The notes below the pieces were generated by a model. That model worked only from the letters and a program-made list of their open reading frames with translations. It was not told the DNA's origin and did no database searches. A stretch of 26,662 nt of DNA from Candidatus Bathyarchaeota archaeon (lineage in GTDB: Archaea; Thermoproteota; Bathyarchaeia; TCS64). Shown here piece by piece: positions 14,838-19,650 of this stretch. The stretch's first letter is position 1, and the number at the start of each line of letters is the position of its first letter. Both the position numbers and the translations under genes were made by a program. The stretch is from contig JBDRQD010000009.1 in the NCBI GenBank assembly GCA_043826455.1, positions 1 through 26,662 of the forward strand. Direction: 5' to 3'.

Positions 14838-14862
14838 ATTGCCGTTCACCGATCATCCACAT

Positions 14863-16224
14863 ATGGCGTCGTTAACTTTCCACGGCGGGGTCAACGAGAT
14901 CGGGGGTAACAAGATCCTTCTGGAGGATGGTGGCACCCGTCTCTGGTTCGACTTCGGGCAGAGCTTCACCATGGGCCAGGAGTACTTCATCAACTACCTT
15001 CAGCCCAGGAGGAGCAACGGCCTCAAGGACTACTTCGAGTTCAACCTGCTGCCCAGGGTCGAGGGCCTCTACAGCGAGGGCGCCCTCAGCGGCACGGCCC
15101 TCAAACATTGCGAGCCCGGGTTCCAGGGCGTCTTCATAAGCCACGCCCACTTCGACCACGTGAACCACATATGCTTCATAGACCCCCGCATACCAGTCTT
15201 CACCGGCAAGGGCACCAAGCTGTTCATGGAGGCCATGGAGCAGACGAGCCCCTACGCCAGCTACGGTGAGCGCGACTACAGGGGCTTCAGGACCGGGGAC
15301 GTGGTGAGAGTGGACGGCGTCGAGGTGGAGCCCATCCACGTGGATCACAGTATCCCCGCTGCGTACGGCTACATTGTGCGCCTGCCCGAGGCCACCGTTG
15401 TCTACACCGGGGACATGAGGGCTCACGGACCCAGGGCGGACATGACTCAGGAGTTCCTGGAGGCCGCCGCCTACTCTGAGCCCGACGTGATGATCTGCGA
15501 GGGCACCCGGATGGCGCGGAGGGGCCGGCGCAGGAACCTGACGGAGGCCCAGGTTGAGGAGGGCGTCAAGAAGGTTTGCAGGGAGGCCGACGCCGGCGGC
15601 AAGGCCGTCATATACACTCACCCGGGAAGGGACATGGACAGGCTACGCACCTTCCACAGGGCGGCGGAGTCCTGTGGCAGGGTCATGGTCATCAACCCCA
15701 AGACGGCCCACCTCCTGAACCGGCTTATAGAGGACGAGCACCTGGACCTCCCCGACCCGAGGACCGACGACCTGATAAGGGTCTTCTACAAGCGCAAGAA
15801 GTCGGGGAGCTACGACGACAGGGACTACTATGTCTGGGAGCGGCCCTACCTGGACCGGATCATCACAGCGGAGGATGTCCATGTGAATCAGGCCGACTAC
15901 CTGGTGAGCCTGGACTTTTACAGCTTCGCCGAGCTCATAGACATCCGCCCAGAGCCTGGCAGCTACTTCATCTACAGCATGAGTGAGCCCTTCACCGAGG
16001 AGGACCTGGAGGAGGAGGTCCTCCACAACTGGCTGAGCCACTTCGGGCTAAGCTACCACCAGCTTCACGCGTCGGGCCACATGAGCCCCAAGGAGCTGGG
16101 TGAGGCCGTGAACATGGTGAAGCCGGGTACGCTGATTCCGGTCCACTGTGAGGAGCCGGGGCTCTTCAGAAAGCACTACAAGAGTGTTAAGCTGCCCAGG
16201 CTGGGCGAGGCCATCACTTTCTAG
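14863..16224 (+). CDS. Metallo-beta-lactamase fold, RNase J-related (beta-CASP-like) nuclease
   Basis: LTFHGGVNEIGGN, DFG, SHAHFDH, DHSIP, YTGD, HASGH, PVHCE. Confidence 0.85.
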   Translation: MASLTFHGGVNEIGGNKILLEDGGTRLWFDFGQSFTMGQEYFINYLQPRRSNGLKDYFEFNLLPRVEGLYSEGALSGTALKHCEPGFQGVFISHAHFDHVNHICFIDPRIPVFTGKGTKLFMEAMEQTSPYASYGERDYRGFRTGDVVRVDGVEVEPIHVDHSIPAAYGYIVRLPEATVVYTGDMRAHGPRADMTQEFLEAAAYSEPDVMICEGTRMARRGRRRNLTEAQVEEGVKKVCREADAGGKAVIYTHPGRDMDRLRTFHRAAESCGRVMVINPKTAHLLNRLIEDEHLDLPDPRTDDLIRVFYKRKKSGSYDDRDYYVWERPYLDRIITAEDVHVNQADYLVSLDFYSFAELIDIRPEPGSYFIYSMSEPFTEEDLEEEVLHNWLSHFGLSYHQLHASGHMSPKELGEAVNMVKPGTLIPVHCEEPGLFRKHYKSVKLPRLGEAITF

Positions 16225-16278
16225 GGGGCGCCCCACCAACCCGTCGAAGCCCATGCCCAACACGTCCAGAGGCTGCTC
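16225..16278 (-). repeat. Degenerate direct-repeat copy of polB 3' coding sequence (partner 17032-17085)
   Basis: Ungapped hand alignment gives 45/54 identical nt. It translates EQPLDVLGMGFDGLVGRP versus PolB EQLLDALDMSFDELVGRP. Confidence 0.9.
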
Positions 16279-16349
16279 GATATATGGCACCCCTCGGATG
16301 CGATCTAATATATGTGCACGCAAATCAACTATCAGCAGAGGCAAATAAC

Positions 16350-16805
16350 ATGAAAAACAGTACTCTCGAAATCAAGGTAGCCATACAAATACTGAAACCC
16401 GCAAGCGAGGTGTACGAGGCCATCGTCGACCCCACAAAAATGTCCAAGTACTTCATCTCGAAGAGCAGCGGGAGAATAGAGGAAGGCAAACAGATCATGT
16501 GGCGGTTCCCCGAGTTCGACGCGGAGTTCCCCATCCGCGTCGGCAAGGTGGAGAAGAACAAGTACATATCCTATCACTGGGACGTGGACGGCAGAGACCT
16601 CCTGGTAGAGATGATGCTGAGCCCCCGAGACGGCGACGCGACCGTCGTCACAGTCACCGAGAAGGGCATGGAGAACGACGAGGCGGGCATCAAATGGCTG
16701 ATGGGAAACACGGGGGGATGGGCCAACTTCCTGGCCTGCCTCAAGGCGTACCTCGAGTACGGCATCAACCTGAGAAAAGGGGCATTCGACTTCCTGAAAA
16801 ACTAA
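16350..16805 (+). CDS. SRPBCC (AHSA1/START-like) domain protein
   Basis: IQILKPASEVYEAIVDP..MSKYF...GWANFLACLKAYLEYG pattern. Start set at ATG 16350. Confidence 0.88.
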   Translation: MKNSTLEIKVAIQILKPASEVYEAIVDPTKMSKYFISKSSGRIEEGKQIMWRFPEFDAEFPIRVGKVEKNKYISYHWDVDGRDLLVEMMLSPRDGDATVVTVTEKGMENDEAGIKWLMGNTGGWANFLACLKAYLEYGINLRKGAFDFLKN

Positions 16806-16989
16806 CCACGGCAGAGCGTGACTGGACTAAGAGCACACGAAGAAAGCGATGACCACCACCGACCGCCACCGCCACCTAAAAACCCTGAAAAAGGCTCCGA
16901 TCAGTAAAACAAGCCCTAGAAACGGGGAAAAGTGGCGGCGGTGAAGGGACCCCCCCTCCCCCCCTCCACACACGCAACAGGAGAGACAC

Positions 16990-19539
16990 TCACCGCTTAA
17001 CACCGAAGAAGGCACCCAGGCTCGTCTGGATGGGCCGCCCCACCAACTCGTCGAAGCTCATGTCCAATGCATCCAGCAGCTGCTCAAAGGTACCCTCCAG
17101 GTACTCCTCATACTTCTTCACGTCCACATCCTTAGACTTGGCCGAGATAGCCGGCAGCACATCATCCTTGGTGACCACATAGCTGATGATGTCCCCAGCC
17201 ACCACCTCATAGCCCTGCTCCTCCAGCATCCGGCCCGCCTTCACGTGCTGAGGATTGGTATCATACTGCTTCAGGGGCTTACCCAGCTGCATCTGGAAGG
17301 CCACCTCCTCCACCTTGAACTCCCTCTCCTTGAGGCGCCTATGCACCTCCGACACCAGCCCCTTGATGTCCTCCTTGGCCGCCGGGAACTCGTCCTCCGT
17401 CTGGACGCTGCTGAGGATACCCGTGAGCTCGTCGAAGGCCGCCTTCAACATGGGCGGTATGTGGCGCTTCTTACCGGTCAGCCCCTTGACGTCCAGGCGT
17501 CCGTCCTTGTAGACTCCCAGATAGTTCTTCTTACGCCTGGAGAAGACGGCGTACCTGTACACCTTGTCCACCTCCAAGTCGATGCCCAGCCCCTGGTCAG
17601 CCCACGCTATCAGGGCGTCAGTCTGCTGCTTCGACGGATGGTTAAGGAACACGCTGTCCGTGTCCCCGTACAGCACCTCAATGCCGAGCTCAGCGCTCTT
17701 CTTGGTGGCCTCCTCCAAAGCGTATCGGCCCACAGCAGCCGTGCTCTCCGCCAGGGGCGGGCAGTAGAGAGGGAAGCTCTCCGAGCCAAAGACACCGTAG
17801 CTGGCGTTGAGGAAAACCTTCAGGGCCTGCTGGACCACGTCGTAGTACTGGCGCTCCCCGTCGGTGAGGCCCTTGTCCTTGCTGCGCGGCTTGTACCAGA
17901 GGACCCTCAGGTCCTTGAGGCTGCCTATGAGCTCGCTGGTCATCCCCCGCCTCTTGGTACAGACCCAGTGAGGGGTCCCCGGCACCAGATTACTCCTACA
18001 CTCCTCATGTGTACACAGGAGGGTGTCGTAGCTCAGGTTCCAGTTACGGATGGCAGAGGGGTAGAGGCTGGCGAAGTCCAGAACCGTCACCTCGAAGTGT
18101 ATGCCCGGCACAGGGTCCCTGACGATGGCGCCCTGGTACTTCTTGCCCTTGATGACGGCCTCCGTGGTGGTGCCTCCCTTGGCCTCGATGATGTCCTTGG
18201 TGTTGGGTATCAGCCAGCCCAGCCTGCGGTGCTCCCACTCCATGAGGCTGAGGATCCAGCGGCTCACCCCCATCCGTGACACGTCCTCCAGGATGCTCTT
18301 GCTTATCCTGCTGAGGAGCACCATGAGGTTCATCACTAGGTTGTCGTTGAAGGCTGTCAGGTAGTAGGTGATGTAGGCGTCCTGCATGCAGTAGTCGCCC
18401 AACTCCTTTATGCTCAGCTCGGCGATGTCCTGGACGGCTATCTTACCCTCCTTGAGGATGCTGGACGCTATCTCGTCAAGCGTATGCTCACGGTACACGT
18501 TGCCGAAGGCGTATCCCTGGATGCTGCGGTTCCTGAAGAACTGGTAGAGGTCAATATGGACGCCGTTGGTGAGGAAAGCGAATCTGCGGCCAAGGGTTAT
18601 GGGGTTCTCCTCGTTGGGCACGCCCAGGTTCCTGGCCCTGTTGCGCAGGTACTTGAAGTCGAAGTCGTCGCCGTTGAACGTAAGCACCACAGGGTACATG
18701 TCCAGCACCCTGAAGGTCTCCTGAATGATTTCCCGCTCAGACTCGTAGACCGTGACCTCGTCTGCCCCAGCGATCTGGGGCGTCTCCACGGACAGCCCCG
18801 AGTCGTTCAGCAGCAGGATCTTCCGGAGCCCGTTGCTGCCCGCGAAGGCCACCGCCGTAATGGGGTCCTTCGCCTCATCCGGGTTGGGCACCCTGTTCTT
18901 CACGGAGGACCTAACCTCGATGTCCACAGCCACGCGCCTGATGTGGGGCACAGGGTTCTGCAGAAGCCTAGCCCAGTCCCTCATGGGCTCCTTCAGGTGC
19001 TCCTCTGTGTGGCTCAGTATCTCGTTGAACTGGGCCTCCACGCTGGCCGGCAGGCTCCAGTCACCCTGGATCAGGTCCCCGTCCACTACCCTGTAGGGCA
19101 TCCCGGGGACCAGGTGCCTGTCGAAGGTGTAGCAGCTGTAGTACCTGATCCTGCTTTCCCAGCTCTCGTTCAGGTGGCTCCGTATGCAGCCCGGGCCTCC
19201 GCCGACGCTGAGGGGGTCCTTGGCCACCACCTTGGTGACCGTGATCTCCTCGTTGGCCAGGGCGTCGTACTTCTCCACTGGGTCCAGGCTCTTGAAACCT
19301 TCGTGGCCCATGACTCGCCTGTTACCCTTGAGCTCCTCGACAGACTGCTTAGATATTAGATAAGGCAGGTGGCCCGTGTTGTCGTACCAGAGGTAGATCT
19401 CCTGGCTCTCTGGCTCGTAGAGCCTCACGTAGGCCTTCTGGAGGGCCCCGTCGTAGCCGGCTGAGAGCAGGTAGCTGGTGCCCAGGTTGTCCGGGGCCAC
19501 CCTGCCCTTCGGCTGTATGATCTCCTCCTCTTCGCTCAT
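16990..19539 (-). CDS. polB1: Family B DNA polymerase, PolB1 (TACK type)
   Basis: N-terminal YDG...KA...LY...YDNTGH.PY typical of PolB1; exonuclease motifs DIE, FNGDDFD, YCMQDA; polymerase motifs DFASLYPS, KVFLNASYG, YGDTDS; C-terminal PIP box QTSLGAFF. Start ATG 19539. Confidence 0.95.
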   Translation of the reverse strand: MSEEEEIIQPKGRVAPDNLGTSYLLSAGYDGALQKAYVRLYEPESQEIYLWYDNTGHLPYLISKQSVEELKGNRRVMGHEGFKSLDPVEKYDALANEEITVTKVVAKDPLSVGGGPGCIRSHLNESWESRIRYYSCYTFDRHLVPGMPYRVVDGDLIQGDWSLPASVEAQFNEILSHTEEHLKEPMRDWARLLQNPVPHIRRVAVDIEVRSSVKNRVPNPDEAKDPITAVAFAGSNGLRKILLLNDSGLSVETPQIAGADEVTVYESEREIIQETFRVLDMYPVVLTFNGDDFDFKYLRNRARNLGVPNEENPITLGRRFAFLTNGVHIDLYQFFRNRSIQGYAFGNVYREHTLDEIASSILKEGKIAVQDIAELSIKELGDYCMQDAYITYYLTAFNDNLVMNLMVLLSRISKSILEDVSRMGVSRWILSLMEWEHRRLGWLIPNTKDIIEAKGGTTTEAVIKGKKYQGAIVRDPVPGIHFEVTVLDFASLYPSAIRNWNLSYDTLLCTHEECRSNLVPGTPHWVCTKRRGMTSELIGSLKDLRVLWYKPRSKDKGLTDGERQYYDVVQQALKVFLNASYGVFGSESFPLYCPPLAESTAAVGRYALEEATKKSAELGIEVLYGDTDSVFLNHPSKQQTDALIAWADQGLGIDLEVDKVYRYAVFSRRKKNYLGVYKDGRLDVKGLTGKKRHIPPMLKAAFDELTGILSSVQTEDEFPAAKEDIKGLVSEVHRRLKEREFKVEEVAFQMQLGKPLKQYDTNPQHVKAGRMLEEQGYEVVAGDIISYVVTKDDVLPAISAKSKDVDVKKYEEYLEGTFEQLLDALDMSFDELVGRPIQTSLGAFFGVKR

Positions 19540-19650
19540 CAGGCCACCTACACAGCGTAGATACCATGCGGCGCGATATAAAATAAGCATCGGCCACCAT
19601 GTTCCCCGTACGGTGGTGAACCCGGCTATCTAGCCATCGTCGGACCCGAA

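Follow-up and report, generated by a model that had tools for sequence, protein, structure and literature searches.

Why does a degraded second copy of the end of a replicative DNA polymerase gene lie against the neighbouring gene, with another gene between the two copies? This question is raised by a 26,662-nucleotide (nt) stretch of Candidatus Bathyarchaeota DNA (GenBank assembly GCA_043826455.1, contig JBDRQD010000009.1), the whole of which is referred to here as the window. In it the 3' end of polB, the gene for a family B replicative polymerase, faces the end of an RNase J-like gene, and a relic of the polB end (the ghost) is separated from the working end by an SRPBCC gene (Table 1). The original prediction, made from the letters of the window alone, read this arrangement as an islet that had entered at the polB 3' end and possibly replaced the tail with which the polymerase binds PCNA. 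After comparison with other genomes of the genus and with metagenome contigs, we consider that the window probably holds the decayed scar left when DNA integrated in Campbell fashion at the polB 3' end, where insertions recur in the genus as at a hotspot. All of the evidence comes from contigs, and every genome compared is a fragmented metagenome-assembled genome (MAG).

The two copies of the repeat, 16225-16278 and 17032-17085, agree with their first description: they align directly and without gaps at 45 of 54 nt (83%), with a spacing of 807 bp, and they exceed the best 54-nt window in 60 first-order Markov shuffles of positions 15001-18500, which reached at most 34 matches (mean 31.4). Translation bore out the account of their contents as well. 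The second copy, on the minus strand inside polB, reads EQLLDALDMSFDELVGRP and then IQTSLGAFFGVKR up to the stop codon, and so comprises the PolB1 residues just before the PCNA-interacting protein (PIP) box. The first reads EQPLDVLGMGFDGLVGRP, adjoins the stop TAG (16222-16224) of the RNase J-like gene without a gap and continues into that gene in antisense. Between the copies lie the AHSA1/SRPBCC gene, an intergenic stretch and the polB tail. The first copy is a true homologue, a relic of the polB 3' end. A 10,571-nt contig from run X1, produced by a different assembler, covers 15700-17600 with 0 differences; X1 is probably the source sample of the window and hence not an independent one. Since the copies are merely 83% alike, a misjoin caused by the repeat is unlikely, and independent assemblies of relatives (G036, the contig L181 and runs X2 and X3) show the ghost joined to the RNase J-like gene in the same way. 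Runs X5 and X6 cover parts of the stretch, and no meaning is attached to the parts that they leave uncovered.

These relatives carry fuller versions of the ghost. The nearest among the genomes compared is G036, whose RNase J-like protein is 96% identical to that of the window. After its stop codon follow GGGGCGCCCC, the PIP-box codons and about 100 nt of further polB end (...YLEYTFDQLLDALDMSFDELVVRPIQTNLGAFFGAPP), which makes a ghost of about 130 nt in total, with a frameshift near its 5' limit and unrelated AT-rich DNA beyond; the polB body is missing from this assembly. The same ghost and junction were found on L181, an independent metagenome contig. The ghost of the window equals that of G036 and L181 minus about 36 nt, the alignment showing a 37-column gap between the similar words GGGGCGCCCC and GGTCGCACC. 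The closest relative in public runs appears in X2 and X3, two samples of one study, on a contig that measures 20 kb (8.3 kb in X3). Starting from the RNase J-like end, this contig shows 12 nt, then a 44-nt ghost piece identical to 17007-17050, in which the PIP codons lie, and more ghost; a 43-nt fragment of a second dispersed repeat comes next, and the SRPBCC unit, 163 nt and polB complete the order. The gap that corresponds to window positions 16279-16294 is about 219-245 nt long there and contains more ghost and the second-repeat piece. Set against it, the window looks like a deletion derivative of the X2/X3 layout. The G036 ghost matches the polB ends of the window (G000), G008, G013 and G031 at 85-86% identity, and all others at 61-82%. 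As it is closest to the polB ends of its own clade, the ghost is native to that clade; it has diverged about as far as the orthologues have among themselves, and the event is old.

An empty-site allele joining polB directly to the RNase J-like gene had been anticipated, and G017 has it: the two genes are convergent and directly joined, and their stops share CTAG, on a contig that includes no more of the neighbour than its last 56 residues. RNase J-like orthologues are convergent to polB in G013, G018, G016, G007, G017, G031, G037, G043 and G036. The spacer ranges from 0 to about 4.4 kb over nine genomes of the genus (about 0.33 kb in G007, 0.45 in G037, 1.6 in G043, 1.85 in G031, 2.6 in G013, 3.9 in G018 and 4.4 in G016), with cargo that is unrelated among genomes. 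Gene order and alignment show that polB and the RNase J-like gene were ancestrally convergent in the genus, their stops touching or overlapping. Read in frame, the G036 ghost gives an old polB end of ...FFGAPPRK before the stop, with an 11-nt overlap with the last codons of the neighbour. The stretch of this old overlap persists in the working tails of G008 (VPTRR), G031 (VPPKR), G013 (VQR) and the window (VKR), each directly before the stop codon, and four additional codons before TGA are common to G008, G031 and the G036 ghost. Because the ghost retains the ancestral junction, as seen in G036 and in the working tails, it is the original polB end, displaced, and the second copy, with its PIP box, is the one now at work as the gene end. 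With such an ancestral overlap, an insertion between the genes must duplicate the overlap to leave both genes whole.

Several observations concern the same junctions and spacers. The tail-to-tail overlap (window 16222-16234 compared with L089 and L057) measures 11 nt in this clade and is CTAG in G017. A derivation of the VKR tail from the dispersed repeat was considered and rejected, as the repeat consensus stops earlier and the tail is the old neighbour overlap. Two tandem units of about 95 nt (GGATCGACGACTTGGCGTTTCCCTTATA...) occupy much of the 450-bp spacer of G037 (L094), and masked N stretches lie in the G031 spacer and the G010 polB end. A 215-nt contig of run X6 holds the RNase J-like end and at least 183 nt of polB-like sequence, which fits an empty site and a long ghost alike.

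A fresh event of the same kind is found in G004. Its polB end is present twice over a length of 158 nt, the copies being 98.1% identical and 1993 bp apart, and the insert holds only AbiEi (PADLOC, 2.3e-74) and AbiEii (PADLOC, 9e-96; Pfam, 1.6e-27) on the polB strand. The two genes are adjacent and overlap by 35 nt, as in a predicted AbiE toxin-antitoxin or abortive-infection pair. The module is sparse in the genus, with AbiEi relatives in 7 of the 32 genomes. Duplicated polB ends around other cargo, which the original prediction had proposed to look for in relatives, are therefore real. A metagenome contig that is 97.9% identical to G004 (L182/L183) has the same layout, and the identity between the two ends exactly where the ghost ends. 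Past that point they differ completely (L182:1-4131 against L041:1-697), with an NYN gene in G004 and a D12 DNA methylase, a TPR protein and unknown ORFs (open reading frames) in the L182 contig. This break at the ghost end between nearly identical strains looks as if the ghost had again served as a recombination boundary.

The G004 event could be resolved further by a five-way alignment, in which the downstream flank of the G004 ghost is common to the unoccupied polB ends of G002 and G037, and element DNA follows the working end. About 30 nt before the ghost, at the other end of the element, are conserved in contig C248 of G015, where a G004-type polB fragment is flanked by both element ends in an attP-like junction. 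Throughout its length the G004 working copy agrees with the C248 fragment at variant sites, and the G004 ghost with G002; in this one case, the split would put the crossover at the repeat's 5' edge. In both events, that of the window clade and that of G004, homology ends at the polB stop codon, as would be expected if only the gene-restoring part is kept under integration. The last bases of C248 (L088:3945-3987) resemble what we take to be a Nextera-type sequencing adapter, and this contig end looks like an artefact.

The surveys indicate how widespread such events are. Within the genus, 27 of 32 genomes gave a polB-end match at E <= 1, with partial extra copies in G004, G015:C248 and G036, and contig breaks lie inside the polB end of G043 and G040. 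An order-wide search with the last 100 polB residues matched 68 of 79 genomes at E <= 1e-6; in this genus (g1) it returned the same three partial copies plus G043 at contig ends, and among the 79 genomes at that threshold no partial extra polB-end copies were found outside the genus. G054 has two full-length-type polB matches on two contigs. An exact 17-mer of the polB end matched 121 stretches in metagenome contigs, and among the 80 fetched, seven loci on six contigs were polB-related and the rest were chance. Defence or toxin-antitoxin genes lie downstream of other polB ends, namely a HEPN-type gene in G002, a HEPN and MNT pair in L170 and the D12 methylase past the ghost in L182. Across the genus the polB end is shown to be a recurrent insertion point. 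Two further contigs are recorded here. L170 (1-2428) begins with a polB tail at 96.7% protein identity to that of the window, followed by about 20 nt like the RNase J-like end and then by the HEPN and MNT-type nucleotidyltransferase genes. L237, titled by a bacterial genus, has a polB fragment 97% identical to the archaeal polB of the window and is probably a mislabelled or misbinned MAG record.

Considering these results, we propose a plausible sequence of events. A circular DNA that itself bore the last 40-54 codons of polB would recombine into the polB end in Campbell fashion. The insert may have arrived as one piece bearing the polB-end copy as an attP-like site, and the recombination may have been site-specific or homologous. 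Integration would restore polB with a complete PCNA-binding tail and strand the old end beside the RNase J-like gene. In the window lineage the original cargo would later have been replaced, the SRPBCC unit and the dispersed repeat being what remains. Campbell-type integration is preferred because it takes one step and not two. The idea of an islet inserted at the polB 3' end is thus supported in part, by the polB-end relic, the empty site and the parallel in G004, whereas two of its elements, a foreign SRPBCC gene and a replaced tail, are not. The current PIP-box tail is no foreign substitute: its orthologues are the tails of G013, G031 and G008, and it has lineage-specific bases in common with the ghost. 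The SRPBCC gene, described at first as foreign-looking, has orthologues in 11 of the 31 other genomes of the genus, always with different neighbours, and their identity (84% in G013, at most 73% elsewhere) roughly tracks relatedness. Orthologues with shifting neighbours show a gene that is native to the genus and moves, and they give no foreign-islet signature; the genes bracketed in the window are accordingly not foreign to the host lineage. X2 and X3 carry SRPBCC at the polB locus together with the fuller ghost, and a copy is found off the polB contig in G013; the gene is probably later cargo and not the original insert.

Several points weigh against this proposal. The bracketed DNA and the window at large yielded no integrase, transposase or other recombinase, the 19 other ORFs scanned in the window being ordinary housekeeping genes, and no recombinase was found in the G004 insert or among 64 ORFs scanned downstream of polB in relatives; the remark that no integrase remains has thus held for the window and for the relatives' inserts scanned. 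Viral contigs gave 14 matches to the polB-end 17-mer, none of them polB-related, and no relative of the G004 AbiEi. C248 is a 4-kb MAG contig without terminal overlap, and its attP-like junction could reflect a circle, a tandem copy or a misjoin at the 160-nt repeat. G013 and G031 have the polB-side junction of the window (tail and dispersed repeat) and no ghost at the RNase J-like gene, and this requires two losses or a more complex history; the contig of G008 stops short of the RNase J-like gene. The length of the repeats is a further difficulty, as set out below.

It is possible, if doubtful, that the polB 3' end in this genus is a dedicated docking site for small integrase-less defence cassettes such as AbiE, each of which would install its own last ~54 polB codons; mobile DNA would then encode the PCNA-binding tail of the main replicase, and the tail would be swapped at entry and exit by a trans-acting recombinase. 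A scheme that dispenses with mobile DNA would begin with a local tandem duplication of about 130 nt of polB end together with the 11 nt shared with the neighbour, and the gap so formed would then gather DNA. The same order of RNase J-like gene, ghost, gap and complete polB would result, and G008, G031, G013 and the window do keep a trace of the neighbour's final codons in their working tails; the lack of a recombinase and a mixed cargo that consists partly of ordinary host genes (SRPBCC, M24 peptidase, GNAT) would also fit. Such a history needs two steps each time, however, and in G004 the copies are still 98% identical, yet a complete two-gene AbiE module fills the whole interval. The duplicated block moreover ends at the polB stop in two independent events, an end that arbitrary duplication does not predict. 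We therefore regard tandem duplication as unlikely.

Less likely still is an imported ghost, by which a fragment from an empty-site strain, comprising the RNase J-like gene and the polB end, would have replaced the resident region by homologous exchange on one side and illegitimate joining on the other. The state of G013 and G031 would then be explained, since the ghost would have been added later in the line of G000 and G036. The RNase J-like gene bears no mark of import, however, being 87% identical in amino acids to those of G013 and G031, like its neighbours (82-88%), and the ghost shares lineage-specific bases with the working polB end of the window (GAGTTGGTGG, CCCATCCAGACGA) and not with another clade. 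That the ghost was kept for a function, for instance as part of the upstream region of SRPBCC or in a small antisense ORF (16048-16344, 98 amino acids), is very improbable, and it is most likely functionless now. The SRPBCC start follows it at a distance of 72 nt and an open frame does pass through it, but this frame matches no family and for the most part runs opposite a conserved gene. Homology with contig C3 of G013 in the region before SRPBCC begins only at 16295, past the ghost, and the ghost itself has decayed, its frame being broken in G036 and 36 nt of it being gone from the window. Chance similarity or an assembly artefact, for which one could cite the state of the window's own genome (a fragmented MAG of 81 contigs with 7% contamination), is refuted for practical purposes by the excess over shuffled sequence, by the second assembler's contig and by the recurrence of the junction, with a longer ghost, in G036, L181 and X2/X3.

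Table 1. Features of the polB locus in the window (positions are those of the whole stretch).
Feature	Positions	Strand	Evidence and remarks
RNase J-like metallo-beta-lactamase/beta-CASP gene	14839-16224	+	Stop TAG 16222-16224; Pfam Lactamase_B_2 1.3e-14, RMMBL 0.0097
Ghost, decayed original polB 3' end (EQPLDVLGMGFDGLVGRP)	16225-16278	-	45/54 to 17032-17085; PIP-box codons lost through a ~36-nt deletion just past the RNase J-like stop
Junction between ghost and SRPBCC unit	16279-16294		No further ghost sequence recognisable; homology to G013:C3 starts at 16295
SRPBCC/AHSA1 unit	16295-16856	+	55 nt upstream, gene 16350-16805, 51 nt downstream; Pfam AHSA1 8.9e-14
Copy of dispersed C-rich hairpin repeat, ~130 nt	16846-16975		Matches elsewhere in the genome
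Working polB tail PIQTSLGAFFGVKR and stop (16990-16992)	16990-17031	-	PIP-box-like QTSLGAFF; trace of the former overlap with the end of the neighbouring gene
Working copy of the repeated segment in polB (EQLLDALDMSFDELVGRP)	17032-17085	-	Repeat search, translation
polB, family B replicative DNA polymerase, PolB1 type	16990-19590	-	Pfam DNA_pol_B 1.2e-44; exonuclease domain 4.2e-17

The predicted polB product scored 1059.9 bits against NCBIfam NF004417 (cut-off 780), its closest solved structure is 1s5j (E 1e-200), which we take to be a PolB1 polymerase, and its C-terminal QTSLGAFF fits Qxx[LIM]xx[FY][FY], which we take as the definition of the PIP box and thus of a putative PCNA-binding motif. 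It has the features expected of an archaeal PolB1-type replicative polymerase with a C-terminal PIP box, and the tail QxSLxxFFG is kept in every polB end aligned. The listed polB ORF begins 17 codons upstream of the alignment start in relatives (residues 17-20; window 19540-19590), and the start is probably the second ATG (MSEEEE...), near codon 18. The convergent neighbour reached 60 bits against the NCBIfam RNase J family, below its cut-off of 400; by homology it is to be called a beta-lactamase-fold or beta-CASP-like hydrolase only, and "RNase J-like" is a loose label.

As for the bracketed DNA, it has been remodelled by deletions and a dispersed repeat, and the original insert is not readable from the window. 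The G013:C3 copy of SRPBCC is 85% identical in nt over 563 nt (16295-16856) and is followed by a dispersed-repeat copy as well. In the part upstream of the gene that is conserved with this copy (16295-16349), a TATA-like TAATATAT lies about 35 nt before the ATG, and the start of a longer SRPBCC ORF at 16284 is probably not real. The idea that the upstream stretch is a dispersed junction repeat was rejected, as 16270-16352 is unique in the genome. The C-rich repeat (16846-16975) has 31 further matches in its own genome at 75-88% (28 copies were aligned), an internal stem (CACCGCCACC...GGTGGCGGTG), a C7TC7 tract and a fold z-score of -2.5 on the plus strand, and a copy occupies the same polB-adjacent position in G013 and G031. 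Several copies adjoin apparent tRNA gene 3' ends. The second dispersed repeat (L181:1435-1587; L089:1-150), which adjoins the G036 ghost, has about 30 matches in the genome of the window. The ~130-nt C-rich repeat has no Rfam match, an Rfam search of 16100-17200 matched no family, and a scan for sigma-70 and terminator patterns, which are ill-suited to an archaeon, gave nothing informative.

The usual trace of an integrating element is a duplicated gene end. Archaeal integrative plasmids and proviruses that target tRNA genes (with SSV-type or pNOB8-type integrases) carry the 3' part of the target gene, so that the gene stays intact. A displaced original part lies at the far end there as at polB, whereas the target here is a protein-coding replication gene and no whole or split integrase is seen at either end. 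In a Campbell-type single crossover a shared segment is duplicated as direct repeats without any enzyme of the element, and about 160 nt of homology is enough in principle; compared with such homologous exchange, the G004 crossover at the 5' edge fits a fixed site better than a random position, in a single case. A transposon or casposon with target-site duplication (at most about 15 bp) was rejected, since the duplications here span 54-163 nt and no inverted repeat pair lies at the insert boundaries. Defence-gene hotspots are fixed slots between core genes that are filled with varied modules. The slot beside polB resembles them, with AbiE, HEPN and MNT, a D12 methylase, NYN and a HEPN-type protein across strains, and differs in that entry is by way of the core gene's own 3' end, which is left duplicated after every fresh event.

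The closest comparison is with attL/attR scars in 3'-distal archaeal protein genes, as treated in the text of Krupovic et al. (2019; PMC6563490). In both cases direct repeats bracket an insert, one repeat is the working 3' end and may bring a new stop, and an empty site in a relative verifies the event; at polB the bracketing repeats are seen in the window and G004 and the empty site in G017. The differences lie in the absence of an integrase from the bracketed DNA, the window scar being old and its cargo replaced, and in the length of the repeats, 130-163 nt here; the same text gives a median of 17 bp for att sites in Thaumarchaeota, and att sites of 29-69 bp in Crenarchaeota. Among the target genes named in that text polB does not appear, and its supplementary table may list more. 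A literature search at the level of titles and abstracts found no paper on polB as an archaeal integration target.

As regards the window alone, the result is modest: the scar is old and inert, and bears witness to the separation of two convergent genes that once overlapped. What sets this case apart is that the target is the replicative polymerase, that the duplicated part includes the PCNA-binding motif, and that unusually long repeats enclose inserts in which no recombinase is encoded. Should the recent AbiE event have taken place as proposed, a functional component of the replisome would come from mobile DNA in these archaea, and the polB end would be a predictable slot in which to look for defence genes in Bathyarchaeia metagenomes.

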